From Malacoraja senta (taxonomy: Eukaryota), in contig CM075989.1 of assembly GCA_038087875.1 (NCBI GenBank), positions 13,580,001 to 13,644,000 of the forward strand: a DNA stretch of 64,000 nt. Direction: 5' to 3'. The translations under genes were made by a program, and so were the position numbers. Of this stretch, positions 482 through 56,100 are shown piece after piece. Position 1 is the first letter of the stretch; each line of letters begins with the position of its first letter. The notes under the pieces were generated by a model that did no database searches, was not told where the DNA came from, and saw only the letters and a list, made by a program, of their open reading frames with translations.

Positions 482-1930
482 ATTTTATTTTTATTTTTTT
501 ATTTTATTTATTAGAAGTACATTACATTACAACAAATTACATAAGTACTCATCACGTATATCTTATTACAATTAATGTACATCATTTTAAAAAACTAATA
601 AAGAGAGAAGGTTGAAATTAAGAAAGAAGAGAAAGTGAGGGAAAATAGTGAAAGTGTAAAAACGTGTCAACAGGAAAGGACAGAGACCCTGTAGAAAAGA
701 GATTGGAAAGAAAAGATTAAGAGATAGACCCTAAAGAAGAAAAAAAAGAGAAAGAAGAGAAAAGAGAAGCATAAGTACTTTATTATGAGCATCTCGCAAA
801 TGGGGTATACCAACTCACCACCTTTCATCCCCCTTTACCTGACATCGGTACTTTTTAAAGTACTTTTGCACCTTATGTTTGTAATAGTTCTATAAATGCA
901 GATGGAAGTGATCTGATTTGCCTGCCAGGAGGAGTCTTATCTCTTCTAAGTGTAATGTTTCAAACATATTTGAAATCCACATGTTTATAGTTGGTATTGG
1001 GGCGTTTTTCCAGAATTTTAGGATAAGCTTTTTTCCAGTTATTAACCCGTAATCAACTAATTTCTTTTGAAACATATTTAGTTCAGGGCTATCTTCCGTT
1101 GTTCCGAAGATAATCCATTCTGCTTTTGGTGTCAGTTTTATTTTAAATAATATTGTAAAGATTTCAAAAATTTCAATCCAAAATTTTTGAATTTTTGTAC
1201 AAAAAACAAATGTGTGCGCTATCGCAAATAGATGATACATTGGGGAACATTTTATTAATTTTAGTTTTTGAATAATATCTGTGTAAAATTTTGAATTGTA
1301 TTAAAGTGTGTCTTACATTAATCGAGCATTTATGCACATTTAATAAATGTTCATTCCACTTTTCTTTTGAAATTTTAATAGCTAATTCTTGTTCCCAGTC
1401 TCTTCTAATACCTTCCGTAGATGGTATTCTACATTTAAGATAATACTATACAAATACGATATTAAGTTTGCTGATTCAGCTTTTATCTGCATTGCTTCGT
1501 CCAGTACATCTGCTGGGATATTATAATGATCTTTTGTATATTTTTTCAAATAGTCACATATTTGAAAATATTTAAAATATTGATTATTTCCCAGTTTATA
1601 TTTTATTTGTAATTGTTGGAATGATAGTAATTTTCCAGTTTCATACAAGTCTCCGAACATTTTAATTCCTAGTCTATCCCATTGTATAAATGATTTGTCT
1701 GTAATAGAGGGATTAAACGAAGGGTTATTAACTATTGGAGATAAAAGCGATAGATTTCTTAATTTTAAATTTTGTTTTATTTGTTTCCAAGTTCTGATTG
1801 TACTATGTATAATTGGGTTTTTGTTATAATTTATGTTATTCAGTTTCATTGGTGAGAGGAGGATCGCTCCAATATTACAAGAGGAGCAGTCCTCTCTCTC
1901 CATTTTAGTGCATTTTCTGATGTGGACAAA
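482..1930 (-). mobile_element. 5'-truncated, degenerate L1/Tx1-type LINE (ORF2 C-terminal region and A-rich tail)
   Basis: ORFs 1382..1936 and 890..1240 resemble L1-clade ORF2 C-termini (W..LGI....DL, FFxYxQ-like, CxKIxxFW, KKLILKFWK); A-rich tail at about 482-512 on the - strand. Confidence 0.7.
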
Positions 1931-50100: not shown

Positions 50101-53100
50101 AATAGGCACAGTGTAAGAAGAGTGTAATCTAACCGTAATAGTGACAAAATAGTGATAAGGCATTGTATTAAAATTCCAACAGCACAGATAATGGCATTGA
50201 ATGCGATTGTAAATGACAGGGTTAGTTAGTTTGTGGATGAACTAAAATTGATGACATAGTGGACTGGAGAAGAGGTCTAAGATTACAATGGGATCATAAT
50301 CAACTGCGCCAAGGAATGGCAGATGGAGTTTAATTCTGAGGATTGCAAGGTGTTGCATTTAGGTAAGAGAAGCAGGGCAGGAGTTGCACAGTAAAGTGTT
50401 GGGCTCTGAGGAGTGTTGTAGAATGGAAACCTAGGGGTACAGATGCATAGTTCTATGAAAGTAACAACACAGGTAAACAAAGTGGTGAAGAAGGCATTTG
50501 GATCACAAACATTTATCAATCAGTATATTGAGTACAAGGTTGGAGAGTGGTGTTGCTACTGTACAAGATTTTGGTAATGCCAAGTTTGGAATACTGTGTA
50601 CTATTCTGGTTGCCCTGCTATTGGAAGGGTGATCTTAAACTGGAAGGGTGCAAATAGACTTGCAAACACTTAAATATTACGGGCTTTGAAAGGTTTAAAT
50701 TATAAGAAGTTGGATAGGCTGGAGCGCAGGAGGCCAGTGCTCATCTTTAAGGACCTTTATAAAATATTGAAGGGCATGGATATGATGAATGGTCAGTCTT
50801 TTCCCTAAGGAAAACTAGTCTAAAACTAGATGATATTAGTTTAAGGTGAAAGAAGAAAGATTTAAAAGGTAGGCAGGGCAAAGTTTTCTCACAGAGGATA
50901 GTATGTATATGGAATGAGCTGCACAAGAAGTGATAGAGGCATGAATAATAACAGCACTTAGGATACGTGGACTGGTACTTGCTAGGAAAGGTTTGGAGGG
51001 ATCTGGACCAGGTGCTGGCAAGTAGAATTAACTCGTGCATCTTGGTTGACATGGAGGAGTTGGGCCGAAGGGCCAATTTCCATGTGTAGGAAGGAGCTGC
51101 AGGTGCCAGTTTATAACCGAAGATAGATACGAAATGCTGTAGTAAATCAGCGGGTCAGGCAGTATCTTCTGAGAAAAGGAATAGATTTTTGGTCGGAACC
51201 CTTCTTCAGAACCCTTCTTCAAATGAGTCTGAAGAAGGGTCTAACTTGAAGCATCATCTATTCCTTTTCTCCAGAGATGCTGCCCGACCCGCTGAGTTAC
51301 TCCAACATTTTTGGCCTATTCCCTGCTGTACAGCACTATGACTCTATGATAAATAGGTTTCACATTGTACATTATGGAGAAATGTTTGTTAGGTGATCAA
51401 AGTTGGGGGCCAAATATTCCAGAGTATTTAACATTTAAAAAACCCACAAAATGAAGTAATGAAGTGTAGTGGGATTGGTGGGAACCCTAATATCAGCATA
51501 GCGTGAGGAATGTTCTTGGAGCCATTGAGACATACAGGCCCTTTGGCCCAACTCGTCCAAGGTATGAAATTGGAAGAAAAAGGTTTCACTCGACCCCTCC
51601 CCCAATTAAAACAAACCGGAGAGCATTTACGCAAACTTTTAACACACACTAAAAATAAAAATAAAAAGATGCTGCTAATCGTGCGGCACCCCTGGTACAA
51701 TGATACAATGATACAATTTATTTGTTGTCATTTGAACCTAAGTTCAAACGAAAAATGCAGCAACACATCCTCTACCCGCAACGTCTTGCTTCCATTACTG
51801 GTGCACTTGTGGTAATGTTTTCTTTCCCCACCTGGAGATTTAGGATGGGCAATAAAAGCAGGGGCACCCTTTTCCTATAAACTCATAAAACGTAAAAGCC
51901 AATCTTCTTATCATGGGCATATTCTCTGTCGAGCTCTGTCTGCATCAGTGCTGAAAAGTTACCTGTTGTCACCTTTGGTATCAGTGTGTTTTTATTACAC
52001 GTCTGTGAGGCAACTTGGAATGTTGTGCCAAGCCCAGTTTATACTAAATTGGGAACAATGTTTTGGCAGGAACGACTACAGAGTCCTCCGAAAATGTATC
52101 ATTGACATGGTCCTTGCCACTGAGATGACCAAACACTTTGAACATGTCAACAAATTTATGAACTGCATCGTTAAGCCTTTGTCTGGATTTGATGAAAATG
52201 CCATTGGGGTAAGCATGGTGTGAACCTCCGCTGCCTGCTGTGGATATCGGGCACTCCGTTACATCATTGGTCAAATTAACGTTTAGCAGATGTATGGTGG
52301 TATTCCACTTTATAAAGGGTATTTAAATTATTAGAATCTAAAGAGTCACTGTAATATAATGGCAAAATAAAAGTTGAAAACTAAATGCATTATTGATTTC
52401 AGACAAATTTAGTGATGAATTCTGGATAAGTAATTTTTAATTTATTGCAGTGAATGCAAACATTAAAAAGACATTTGGACAGGTACATGGATAAGAAAGG
52501 TTTAGAGGGATATAGGTCATCGCCTTGACATTGACTTTCTCCTACTTGTTTTTATCAAAGCTAGATTTTGTCAGTTCCTCTTTCAGTGCAGACCTGTTGT
52601 TGCCATTGTTTCCTGGAGCTTTCTGAGATGCCTTTTCTGAAGTAGAGACTGGACTCGGTGTGCCCTTTGAGATAAATAATCGAGGTCAAACAGATATGAT
52701 CTCCTTTCTTGAGCAGTGTGATGAGCTGGATTCTGTGTGGCTAATCCTGTCAGTGGAGCAGGCTTATGTTATGGTTTTAAACAGCAGCCCTACAATTGGA
52801 TTCAAGGTCAGGCCAGTTTTGTTGAGAGCTAATGACAAATTGCCAGTGATTTGGCTGTAGATTTCTTAATTGTAAAATGCTTTTTGGTTTGAAGCTGTGA
52901 GATGGGGCGTCTGCAGTGGGGCTGGGGCCCGAGCATGAGCTGGAAGATCTGGATCTGGGAGTGCTTCCCAGACCCATGCAGATCCTAAAAGGAGCTTGCA
53001 ATTCCACTGTGTGGCATCTGCTGCTTGGAGACTATCTCCGTGATATTCAATATTTATGTAAGGGCTACATTTTTCAATATCTAAATGTTGTGATTGGCAT

Positions 53101-56100
53101 TTTAACCACGCACCTAGTCCATAGGTTATTGGATTCTCATAGTCTAAGAAGGAAACTTGCCATGCTTGCATTGTTTTTTCTATGTTCTTTGTCTCTAGCT
53201 GCGCTCATTCACCCATTGACCAGTTTACCTTGCTTGCAACTTACACTTTAATTTAGATTAGAGATACAGTGCAGAAACAGGCCCTTCAGCCCAGGTCCAC
53301 ATCGACCAGCGATCCCCACACATTAACACTAACCTGGGGTCAAGGAAAGAGCGTTCACAACGCGGCCCTGATTCCACCAATCTTTCCACCATGAAGCACG
53401 AGAAGCACAAGAAGTGCAAGACGCCATTGCATGCAGATGCCGAGAAGTGTGTTCAGCACTGGCTGAACAATTTCTAATCTTGTGATGTGGACTCGATAAG
53501 AAGAACACTAACCTACACACACGAGCGACAATTTACACTTGTACCAGGCCAATGAACCTACAAACCTGTAAGTCTTTGGAATGTGGGAGGAAACCGAAGA
53601 TCTCTGAGGAAACCCACGCGGTCACGGAGAGAACGTATAAACTCCGTACAAACAGCACCCGTAGTTAGGATCGAACCCGGGTCTACTGGCAATGTAAGGC
53701 AGCAACTCTAATGCTGCGCCATCATGCCAGCCTTCACAGTTAACATATTTAAAACATGGGCCCCTGGTTAGGGGGAAGGGAACAGATGAAAGGACAAGTG
53801 TTGCATCACCTATAGTTGCCAGGGAAGTGCTGTATGAAACAAGGTGGTTGGTGGGAGCAGGTGTGGATCAGGGAGTCGTAAAGGGAACCTTCTTGCCAAT
53901 TGCTGAAAGGGAAGGTGGTGGAATCTCTTTGAAGGTGGCAGTAATTGCAGATATGGTCTTGCTATCTAACTGTTCCCGTTCACTCATTGACCAAATAACC
54001 TTGTTTGCGTCCTGGTTTTACTCTATCAGAGATTCTCCTCCCCCCCACCCTTCCTGTTACTTAAACGGCTCTTTTTCTCTCCTTCCCCATTCTGACCAAA
54101 GGGTCTTGAACCTGAAACATGACTCTGTTTCTCATCCCGCTAATGCGATCTGACTCGCTGAGTATTTCCTGCATTTTATTATTTTTTAGATTTGCAGTGT
54201 CAGTTTTCTTTTGATTTTGATTCCCATTTACAAGATGGCACTGAATGATGGATTGCTCAGTGGTGCTAACATCCGAGGAATGACCTTTGTCTACATTCAG
54301 TTTCACATGAAGCATAGTGGGTAAATTGAGGAACCCCTTCCCATGCTGTAATGGTTATAGCTACTTTCCCAACCCCGGTATGAAGTACAGAGCTTAGGTT
54401 AAACATGGGAGGAGATTTTGCAATGAACATTGTGGGCCCATATTGCTGCACTCTTCAGGCACTAATCAATAGTTTGTTCTGGTAATGGAAACACTGTTCA
54501 CTGAGCCAGTTCATCCACAGAGAACAACTATGTCTAAATGCCTGGAGCAGGCCGACTCTTTGTCACCAGCAGCTCAAATGCATTCAAATAATGTGGCTGC
54601 ATGCTAGCTGGTGAAGAAAACTGCATTCAGTTTCTTTGCAGTAGAAGGTCCCATGCAACGAGAGACAGTAGTCCAGTGAACTGAATCTGCTCTTTCCCAA
54701 ACGATGTAAGTGTTTCTCTCCTCAGAGTCTTGTCTTGGTACTTGCCGTCCTGGTCAGTTCTTGCACCAACTGTACGTCTAGTGTCAAACACCATCCCATG
54801 AATTGCCAGCTAACCTGCAAGTTGGGCATATGACCGGCCAAACATCTTGGCATGTGGTGTATGCGGGTGGATGTGTGGTGTTCCTGACCTGAATTTAGTG
54901 GTTGTAGAAACTCTTCAAAATTAATTCCCCCTTCCATGCAGTGCATTTTTGTTTCCCAGCTGTGATTTTGTTATTAGATAGTAATTCTAGTCATTTCAAG
55001 CATGGTTGAAATTGGAACTGAGCTGCTAATTTTCGGAACCTGTTGGGTGTGCTGGTGGCATCTTTCTTTCCTCAAAGACCTGCCTTTGCGTTGGGTGGAG
55101 GAACTGGCAGTCTTGCAGTGGGGGGGGGGGGGGGCACCAAGGACCCCACCTGGGACAAGGCATGTGGTACAGTGATGAGGAAGGCTCCTCCAGAACCTGC
55201 TCTGACAGGAGGGTGAAGGATTTTTTATCAACATAAGCACTTGGGACCTCTGTTCACCTTCAGTCCAGCAGTGGGAGGTGTGCAGCATGTGGCTCTCACA
55301 CGAGCCCTTGTGTTTTGCTTGGCGTTTACAGTAAACCTTTGTTTTCCTTTGCAGATTAGCCCCAGCAATATTACTACATCCAGATCTGCCGTCAACTCTC
55401 TTGAGAACCGAACTCTGATCATGCGTATGATAATTAAATGTGCTGATGTCTCCAATCCCTGCAGACCACTGCAGATATATATTGAGTGGGCACAACGTAT
55501 TTCAAAGGAGTACGCTGATCAGGTGTGGGAGTGAAATTTTAATTTAATGCTTTCCCTATTTTTTGTAGTGAACTGAGAGTAGTAGGAGCAGTTTTGGCAA
55601 GTACAAATTTTTAATCATAAAATAATGTCTGGTTCCTTTTAAAACTTCTCTTCCTGAACACTCCTTCCCCTCCACAAATGGCACACCTGCATCCCACGAT
55701 TCTGCCTCCAACTTCCTATCAGAGTCCTGTAATCTGATCCTGTTTGACATCCCCTACTGTTGACCAAGTATTTTACCACTGCAAAGCAATCACATGTATT
55801 GGAGGAGAATCAGGTGCTAACCTTCAAATCCACTCCACTGCTCAGCAAGATCCTAGCGTAACCTCAATCCTGTGTTCCCTGCTCCAGTGATCTTGCATCC
55901 TGTTGTTTATGAAGAATCTATCATCTTCTACTATAATATTCAGAGACTTTGCTTTCATCATCCTTTGAGGAGAGATCCAAAGACTTCCACTTTATCTCCA
56001 TCTCAATGCTTTAAGCAGTGACGACGAGTTTTGATTCTCTCACAAGAAGAAATGTGCTTTGAACACTGCCTGTTGGTGCCCATCAGAACTTGCATGTTTC

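Follow-up and report, generated by a model that had tools for sequence, protein, structure and literature searches.

A P4-less CPEB3-type ribozyme fold heads a family of short retroelements in Malacoraja senta

How does a dispersed element of 168 bp, which has no protein-coding capacity, come by an exactly placed 5' end? The question is raised by an insert on the plus strand of a 64,000-nucleotide window of Malacoraja senta DNA (NCBI GenBank assembly GCA_038087875.1, contig CM075989.1, positions 13,580,001 to 13,644,000 of the forward strand; "the window" refers to this whole stretch, and positions given below are those of the window). A sequence-only reading of this DNA had mapped the first 52 nt of the insert (53336-53387) onto a minimal ribozyme similar to that of hepatitis delta virus (HDV-like) and of the CPEB3 type, and had proposed a short element that is released from host transcripts by self-cleavage instead of relying on an RNA polymerase III (Pol III) promoter. 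Here we describe the family to which the insert belongs, the conservation of the fold at its head and the related long interspersed nuclear elements (LINEs) that start with homologous ribozymes. Taken together, we consider it likely that the insert is a decayed copy of a bipartite family, without long terminal repeats (non-LTR), of ≈2,800 copies, headed by a P4-less derivative of the CPEB3-type ribozyme of an endonuclease/reverse transcriptase LINE, and that the 5' ends of the copies were generated by self-cleavage.

Borders and copies of the insert

The borders are given by an 11-bp target-site duplication (TSD), AACACTAACCT, which was read directly and also found by a script (locus L031), with its left copy at 53325-53335 and an identical right copy at 53504-53514. 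Because this sequence flanks both sides, the insert spans 53336-53503 (168 bp), starting with the G of the predicted cleavage site; the coincidence of that site with the TSD boundary had been pointed out in the sequence-only reading and holds. Comparison with sister copies identifies the insert as a non-autonomous non-LTR retroelement (family S1) consisting of the 52-nt head, a short body (53388-53486) and a 3' tail. The body begins with ACCA(C/T), followed by a variable number of 9-nt repeats of the GCACAAGAA type and a stretch resembling the last codons of a LINE open reading frame (ORF) including the stop, while the tail is represented by the 3' terminal motif GTGGACTCGATAAGAAG (53487-53503), to which 0-2 further AAG are added in copies. 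A 28-codon frame starting with ATG is present in the window copy at 53391-53477; since most copies have ACCAC.. where the window copy has ACCATG, and so no start codon there, this ATG is a private mutation and not a gene.

Searching the genome (1.94 Gb) with the insert gave 1255 first-look candidates, and the 40 that were scored were all 88-100% identical. With the P4-less junction TGTTTCCACCAATCTTTCCACCA as query, allowing at most two mismatches, 2842 genome matches were obtained compared to 0 for the reversed control; hence, the further copies that had been predicted are present in their thousands. To avoid a bias towards full-length copies, 30 loci were chosen by their 3' 80 nt alone. Twenty-six of these reach the first G of the head (G1, corresponding to G53336) and four are 5'-truncated. 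Moreover, at 25 of the 26 full-length loci a direct repeat of 9-15 nt (with at most one mismatch) ends between -1 and +3 of G1 and resumes right after the tail. The 5' ends of the family are thus fixed at the first G and abut TSDs, as had been anticipated.

The mean pairwise identity of 47 distinct full-length copies is 88.1%. Their lengths cluster at 168 bp (18 copies) and 159 bp (11 copies), i.e. one 9-nt GCACAAGAA unit apart, and the length classes of 150, 159, 168, 177 and 186 bp result from a varying number of this unit. The family tail reads GGACTCGATAAGAAG with 0-2 further AAG. In contigs from four other public runs the borders of the repeat are the borders of the element, and the flanks are discordant; several coded organism labels are attached to the runs. 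The element was found in 24 public runs in total, all in the form of assembled contigs, which cannot show RNA ends, and one of the runs is recorded as RNA. In this RNA run the start of one 151-nt contig coincides with base 1 of the element; this contig was not counted, its depth being 2 and contigs being prone to break at repeat borders. As to individual loci, L013 and L015 lie on different contigs with identical element and flanks and are probably an assembly duplicate or haplotig, and L003 and L009, whose flanks differ, share a contig at a distance of 30 kb.

The insert lies within another interspersed repeat, the halves of which extend over about 53255-53324 and 53515-53735 (minus strand). 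This host repeat resembles a tRNA-related short interspersed nuclear element (SINE) on the minus strand, yet ARAGORN reported no tRNA and Rfam no match. A second tail-like match in the window, at 50259-50275, has three mismatches, and no element was seen on reading the region.

Anatomy, covariation and relatives of the head

Direct reading of the sequence from 53336 onwards gave exactly the string and the mapping onto the HDV fold that had been described. The 5' strand of P1, GGGGUC (53336-53341), with the predicted cleavage site 5' of G53336, pairs with GGCCCU at 53364-53369 to form six base pairs (G.U, three G-C, U.G and C-G) with wobbles at G1.U34 and U5.G30; at the sequence level the G53336-U53369 wobble closes P1 at the predicted cleavage site. 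The 5' strand of P2, GGAAAGA (53344-53350), forms a perfect 7-bp helix with UCUUUCC (53381-53387), and P3 (GCG/CGC, three pairs; 53351-53363) encloses the 7-nt loop L3, UUCACAA, which in most copies is UUCACGU. The order P1-P2-P3-P3'-P1'-(P1.1)-P2', with P1 and P2 crossing, is present and P4 is absent. C21 in L3 and G35, which follows the 3' strand of P1 (53364-53370 including G35), are both in place for the proposed single pair P1.1; this pair is invariant among the heads and thus neither supports nor opposes pairing. Three of the 52 positions of the head distinguish the window copy from most sisters (e.g. L016), two of them in L3 (G24A, U25A) and one in the linker (U36A); judged by its sequence, the window copy is an old, decayed fossil of its family.

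Two details of the earlier mapping had to be revised. J4/2 had been given as C-A-A preceded by a 7-nt linker; the alignments instead give a 6-nt linker, AUUCCA (53371-53376; UUUCCA in most copies), at the place taken by P4 in relatives, followed by J4/2 CCAA (53377-53380). C42 and C43 both precede AA and the 3' strand of P2, and the catalytic C had been placed at 53378 (C43). Because the alignments of Rfam (cmscan) and of the related heads set CCAA opposite CGAA, it is C42 (53377) that is homologous to the catalytic C. Accordingly aligned, 53377 is the more likely catalytic position, although either C could serve.

The CPEB3_ribozyme family (RF00622, gathering score 35 bits) is the only Rfam match in 53250-53560, using permissive filters. 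It also matches 16 of 20 sister loci (20.8-34.1 bits), no other ribozyme family being found among them. The noted resemblance of the core to the mammalian CPEB3 ribozyme is therefore borne out, with CPEB3_ribozyme as the sole matching family in the Infernal/Rfam check that had been suggested. At gathering thresholds no Rfam family was found anywhere in the window. P4-less copies elsewhere in the genome do exceed the gathering score, among them one of family S1 (L087, 37.4 bits) and one (L081, 43.7 bits) of S2, an older-looking short subfamily with GGCCCCU, the latter copy being without any P4. Since L087 reaches 37.4 bits the short family passes the Rfam gathering score, though the window copy falls below it.

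Genome-wide, 39 of the 60 RF00622 matches that were scored exceed 35 bits and the best reaches 64.2 bits. The top matches (70-89 nt) have P4 and fall into four families, A to D, with scores between 45.8 and 64.2 bits. Specifically, family A (64.2 bits) has P1 GGGGAUC/GAUCCCU and P2 GGUAGAA/UUCUACC; family B scores 59.7 bits; family C (47.7-50.6 bits) has P2 AGCAGGA/UCCUGCU and P4 CAGAUUCU/GAAUCUG; and family D (45.8-48.2 bits) has P2 AGAAGGA/UCCUUCU and a short P4, CAGGU/ACCUG. In families B (L065, L069, L073), C (L072, L074, L076, L082) and D (L075, L078, L084, L086) some 25-45 nt after the ribozyme are shared within the family, in family D for example ACCACGCTACACTAACTAACCAAC, after which the sequences diverge. 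Judging by this layout, the members of these three families may be retroelements with a length of only 100-125 nt, consisting of little besides ribozyme and tail. In front of one family A head, L071 (locus ≈1500-1640, minus strand), lie two or three incomplete copies, in tandem, of the initial ≈35 nt of that head (..GATCAAGGTAGAAGCGTTCACGTC..), which may be a result of template jumps at the 5' end during insertion.

To follow the fold across these families, 79 distinct heads were aligned and 25 pairs (P1, P2 as a pseudoknot, P3 and P4) were counted; the rearranged L071, the duplicates L015, L031, L032, L038, L042, L046 and L048, and the coreless L035, L043 and L085 were left out. The pairing is clearly conserved. 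Standard pairs occupy 90.2% of the cells, compared to 44-55% when the partners were slid by 1-3 columns, and none of 500 shuffles reached this value. Double changes were observed in 110 cells (8-18 when slid; 0/500 shuffles), where each cell is a copy and not an independent event, and the covariation score was 0.202 (0.040-0.074 when slid; 0/500 shuffles). Fifteen of the 25 pairs changed on both sides, compared to 6-9 when slid, a value reached by 28 of the 500 shuffles. One measure pointed in the opposite direction: the number of further standard pair types, 35, was lower than the shuffle mean of 38.7 (494/500 reached it), while being higher than the 20-28 of the slid controls. By helix, the proportion of paired cells was 89.7% for P1, 94.2% for P2 and 89.4% for P3 (79 heads), and 91.4% for P4 (22 P4-bearing heads); changes on both sides were seen in four of the seven pairs of P2, six of the eight of P4 and two of the six of P1. 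Hence, the covariation check that had been called for gave a positive result for P1 and P2 (and P4) when related families are compared. For the short family, whose P1 has one pair fewer, column pair 13-49 carries no meaning; in L3, columns U32 and U33 do not vary among the 79 heads.

The P4-bearing families also suggest how the 52-nt form arose. In the short family the linker has 6 nt, compared to 19-39 nt of P4 in the relatives, and it is similar to the P4 loop and 3' strand of family D (UUUUCCACCUG). Furthermore, the short head UGUUUCCACCAAUC aligns with UGUCAGGUUUUCCACCUGCGAAUC of family D, and looks like a family D head lacking UGCG as well as the 5' strand of P4. Each strand of P1 is shorter in the short family than in families A-D (GGGG/CCC vs GGGGG/CCCC), and the G.U-closed helix is kept. 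That P4 can be dispensed with has precedent: the known HDV-like ribozymes include P4-less ones, among which the phage 'theta' subgroup is capable of self-cleavage in vitro (Kienbeck 2024, available part of PMC10879173).

Related LINEs and the partner of the short element

The family A ribozyme (64.2 bits) is the head of a LINE, referred to here as LINE A, in which an ATG and a long frame follow ≈30 nt downstream. The frame, recovered in three pieces, encodes Exo_endo_phos/Exo_endo_phos_2 and RVT_1 domains. One copy, which was read through, is ≈3.15 kb long with a single interruption in about 1030 codons and runs into ..CACGAAAAGAAGAAGAAGAG; the 12 bases after its end, GACAGAACAAAA, are those that precede its first base, i.e. 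a TSD. All six of the LINE A 3' ends that were read finish with ..GACACGAAAAGAAGAAGAAG (..CAAAGACACGAAAAGAAGAAGAAG) and then pass into unrelated flanks; the tail of LINE A is (AAG)n. The 3' 120 nt gave 225 candidates, and the 40 that were scored were all 98-100% identical. With copies ≈98% alike, compared to ≈88% for the short element, the LINE A family is much younger than the short family. The copies inspected (L061-L064, L066, L067, L070, L077, L080 and L091-L096) have the look of a recently active element.

For the reverse transcriptase (RT) of LINE A there are 722 relatives at E ≤ 1e-20, many with 900-1000 residues on contigs of 3.0-3.4 kb. Named examples come from aphids, moths, sea urchin, amphioxus, an Antarctic fish and Anolis (57% identity), and the names of the homologues ('reverse transcriptase domain-containing' or 'hypothetical') are uninformative. 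One relative of 970 residues (P0085) is on a 3.5-kb contig of a cyanobacterial assembly and is most likely a eukaryotic contamination. As to the clade of LINE A, RTE or Vingi, its length of 3.15 kb, the C-terminal Cys/His motif and duplications of ≈11-12 bp lean towards Vingi/Ingi; Vingi-2_Gav, for comparison, is 3128 bp long. A partner LINE of the Vingi/Ingi type, for which a comparison with such entries had been recommended, would be compatible with these sequence features.

Similar heads are also present on LINEs from metagenomes. A profile of 31 LINE proteins retrieved 80 metagenome loci, ≈33 of which (hand count) have at least 1.5 kb upstream of the RT match, many others being truncated or without the 5' region. 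At gathering thresholds Rfam found CPEB3_ribozyme (55.6 bits) in two of 20 metagenome loci (L109 and L110), ≈1.55 kb upstream of the RT match, which is the expected 5' end. In L109, P1 (GGGGGCC/GGCCCCU), P2 (AGCAGAA/UUCUGCU) and P3 are the Rfam consensus letter for letter, and only P4 differs. The L109 element is ≈3.18 kb long, ends with ..GAGACACGAATCATCATC (..GACACGAA(TCA)n) and has a 14-nt TSD, ATCATCCGAGTCTT, on both sides. L109, L110 and L111 represent one sequence from three samples; it recurs, truncated, in L119. This is a degenerate LINE copy with identical ribozyme and flanks in L109-L111 and a tail of (ATC)n/(TCA)n, not (AAG)n; because ribozyme and flanks are shared, one eukaryote is present in all three samples. 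A covariance model of our own, narrowly built on families A-D and L109 (which is thus part of its training set), gave two independent matches, L104 (16.9 bits, E 0.025) and L105 (16.3 bits, E 0.038), the P1 and P2 of which are fully different and yet complementary; those of L105, GGGGAAG/CUUCCCU and GGCAUCG/CGAUGCC, are fully complementary and unlike all others. Found on related LINEs from unrelated metagenome samples, the CPEB3-type head appears to be a feature of a widespread group of compact LINEs.

The head of the short element is homologous to the 5' ribozymes of LINE A and of these metagenome LINEs, and the 3' ends are alike in the terminal motif. The terminal motifs are GGACTCGAT(AAG)n in the short element, AGACACGAA(AAG)n (..AGACACGAAAAGAAGAAGAAG) in LINE A and GAGACACGAA(TCA)n in L109, i.e. 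all share GAC(A/T)CGA(A/T) followed by a trinucleotide repeat. The protein profile of the clade ends with ..NxxAxxCVxxWxxxx, and the body of the short element has similar codons and a stop at the same place before the tail. With hhalign the last codons of the body fall on profile columns 994-1004 of 1007, a weak match over 11 residues (E 0.0046, probability 7.5%). Based on these sequence similarities we conclude that the short element probably derives from a LINE of this clade as a bipartite element, composed of the 5' ribozyme, the last codons, the 3' untranslated region and the tail. Its parent is not the young LINE A, and among the 40 matches scored for the 3' 80 nt of the short family there were only short elements and no LINE.

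The origin of the 5' ends and comparison with known systems

In the scheme that we favour, a source copy would be transcribed within any host transcript, its head would fold into the nested double pseudoknot and cut 5' of G1, and the released RNA would begin exactly at G1. The protein of a LINE, supplied in trans, would then recognise the 3' end and carry out target-primed reverse transcription into a staggered nick, which would yield full-length copies that start at G1 and are flanked by duplications of ≈11 bp. With respect to the original proposal, the ribozyme-type head and the lack of a tRNA-like or small-RNA head stood, while cleavage as such keeps the rank of a prediction.

Several observations weigh against this scheme. 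A precise internal promoter could fix the 5' end equally well. The window copy matches the Rfam model over its full length with P4 collapsed, and its score of 25.1 bits (E 1.2e-4, permissive filters) is under the gathering score. Its best non-pseudoknot minimum free energy (MFE) fold is a different hairpin of -15.9 kcal/mol (z = -1.5; equalled by 19 of 200 shuffles), compared to about -9 kcal/mol for P1+P3, and together with the two substitutions in L3 this suggests that the window copy itself may be incapable of cleavage. For a well-preserved head the corresponding rough values are -9.5 kcal/mol for P1+P3, to which the P2 duplex adds about -7.4, and -10.6 kcal/mol for the best non-pseudoknot fold; MFE folding cannot model pseudoknots, and these energies are rough sums that were not used as evidence. 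J4/2 is CGAA in all P4-bearing relatives and CCAA, without P4, in the short family. The covariation was counted over copies, and the double changes in P3 are at CpG sites and may be decay. On the side of the LINE, BLASTP gave no alignment between the body of the short element and the C-terminus of LINE A, the copies of LINE A are ≈98% alike compared to ≈88% for the short element, and our own covariance model matched only six of the 80 metagenome loci at E ≤ 1, three of the six being one sequence.

The promoter argument leads to the alternative that the head is a ribozyme relic, which lost cleavage together with P4 and was kept as an internal promoter, with transcription starting at G1, or as a site bound by the LINE protein, as in Pr77/L1TcRz of L1Tc/NARTc. 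The 77-nt head of L1Tc/NARTc is indeed both promoter and ribozyme (available part of PMC3383444), and the J4/2 sequence CCAA, unlike the CGAA of all P4-bearing relatives, would suit a relic. On the other hand, at least 2,800 copies were made after the loss of P4 with the complementarity of P1, P2 and P3 intact, P1 was shortened on both strands and its G.U-closed helix retained, and P4-less HDV-like ribozymes are known, with phage 'theta' being active in vitro (PMC10879173, in the part available). No promoter motif came up either, although no search aimed at eukaryotic promoters was made. We consider this alternative unlikely.

It is also conceivable that the RNA is not cut and that the 5' ends are set where reverse transcription stops at a stable pseudoknot or another RNA feature. 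Reverse transcriptases can pause at RNA structure, and the head is highly structured. However, a structural stop would end the cDNA on the 3' side of the fold and produce headless copies, not ends at the first base; 26 of the 30 loci contain the whole head, and the same exact start is found in LINE A and in the metagenome LINE L109. We therefore judge such a stop highly improbable. Even less credit is due to a chance fit to the HDV fold or to an ordinary Pol III SINE head, for which could be cited the unremarkable non-pseudoknot MFE fold (z = -1.5) and a superficial likeness, by eye, of GCG-UUCACGU-CGC to a tRNA T-arm or B box. Against it, Rfam reports only CPEB3_ribozyme, with up to 64 bits in related heads, the covariation greatly exceeds that of the slid and shuffled controls, ARAGORN found no tRNA in or near the element and Rfam no small-RNA family, and the element starts 16 nt before the putative B box, which leaves no room for an A box. 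A classical SINE head (tRNA, 7SL or 5S) was rejected on the same results, i.e. no tRNA with ARAGORN and no Rfam family except CPEB3_ribozyme.

Self-cleavage at G1 thus being the explanation we prefer, the closest known sequence is the mammalian CPEB3 ribozyme (RF00622). The fold is the same, the consensus block AGCGUUCACGUCGCGGCCC is identical in most short-element heads, and L3 UUCACGU, the G-U step after P1 and J4/2 C(G/C)AA are shared. Family C comes particularly close, with P2 AGCAGGA/UCCUGCU compared to aGCAGAA/UUCUGCU in CPEB3 (one compensatory pair) and the same P4 strands, CAGAUUCU/GAAUCUG. The short element differs from CPEB3 in that P1 has 6 bp and not 7, P4 is absent, J4/2 is CCAA and the window copy scores 25.1 bits, below 35. 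Moreover, the CPEB3 ribozyme is single-copy and intronic and has been reported only in mammals, whereas here the motif is dispersed on the heads of thousands of retroelements and is not at the CPEB3 locus. We raise the tentative possibility, which we hold to be somewhat less probable than its converse, that the CPEB3 ribozyme of mammals was domesticated from the 5' head of a compact endonuclease/RT LINE, or of a short derivative, after insertion into an intron of CPEB3. The human genome is said to retain Vingi traces (X12_LINE; PMC5753468), which, should LINE A turn out to be a Vingi element, would suit an insertion of great age. If this origin is true, the M. senta genome preserves the living source, i.e. 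an autonomous LINE, several short ribozyme-headed families and the P4-less 52-nt form, and its sequences would supply the outgroups called missing by Bendixsen et al. With an autonomous LINE and short elements in their thousands carrying CPEB3-type heads (up to 64 bits), there would thus be a concrete, testable origin for a memory-linked ribozyme, together with outgroups for ancestral reconstruction. A member of the LINE group, should it be Vingi, is being developed for gene insertion (PMC13708176).

The principle of HDV-like ribozymes at the 5' ends of LINEs is already established: they process the RNAs of R2, RTE, Baggins/LOA and L1Tc, and non-autonomous partners retain them (available part of PMC6765202). 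In the literature searched, which does not extend to the key primary papers, so that prior notice is possible, there was no report of a CPEB3-type ribozyme outside mammals or of a P4-less HDV-like ribozyme heading a eukaryotic retroelement, and the chondrichthyan literature found by the search makes no mention of a ribozyme. What appears to be new is the occurrence of the CPEB3 type beyond mammals and of a P4-less form on an element of a vertebrate.

By description, the arrangement resembles that of L1Tc/NARTc and ingi/RIME, where an HDV-like ribozyme lies within the first ≈77 nt of an autonomous LINE and of its internally deleted partner, both dispersed and with TSDs (PMC3185411, PMC3383444 and PMC6765202, as far as available). 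Those elements are found in protists and have poly(A)-type tails, a promoter-active head and P4, whereas the elements described here are P4-less with (AAG)n tails. The non-autonomous derivatives of R2, the short internally deleted elements (SIDEs), likewise keep the 5' HDV-like ribozyme and the protein-binding 3' end and use the LINE protein in trans (PMC3414825 and PMC6765202, in part); R2 and its SIDEs are restricted to 28S rDNA and depend on a restriction-like endonuclease, while the elements here are dispersed and related to a LINE with an apurinic/apyrimidinic endonuclease (APE)-type enzyme. In RTE, Baggins (LOA), R1 and R4 elements the ribozymes are also 5'-terminal, free promoter-less LINEs from co-transcripts and are shortly followed by the ORF (available text of PMC5786205 and PMC6765202), and for none of these elements did our literature search yield a report of a CPEB3-type sequence.

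The bipartite Vingi and RTE elements (Vingi-1_EE derivatives, WALLSI3 and Bov-A) combine the 5' and 3' ends of a compact single-ORF LINE with no ORF between them, and a 5' ribozyme has been suggested as the reason why such elements keep the exact 5' end of the LINE (Kojima 2018; PMC5786205, in part). The elements described here differ in having only 150-186 bp, of which the ribozyme makes up one third, and in having lost P4. In this latter respect they are like the minimal HDV-like ribozymes drz-Mtgn and theta, which have no P4, keep the rest of the core and comprise ≈50 nt (PMC10879173, available part). These are found in metagenomes and gut phages, theta being located next to tRNAs, and the available text of the same source states that the eukaryotic origin and function of minimal HDV-like ribozymes are undetermined; here the form heads a eukaryotic retroelement with no tRNA nearby. 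P4-bearing forms beside the 52-nt derivative in one genome constitute a natural P4-deletion series, from which it could be learned how little RNA defines the 5' end of a retroelement, and if the origin proposed above for CPEB3 is true, no minimal HDV-like ribozyme before the 52-nt form would have had so evident a role in a eukaryote. Unlike drz-Mtgn and theta, the P4-less form of the short family can be seen to stem from P4-bearing relatives within one and the same vertebrate genome.

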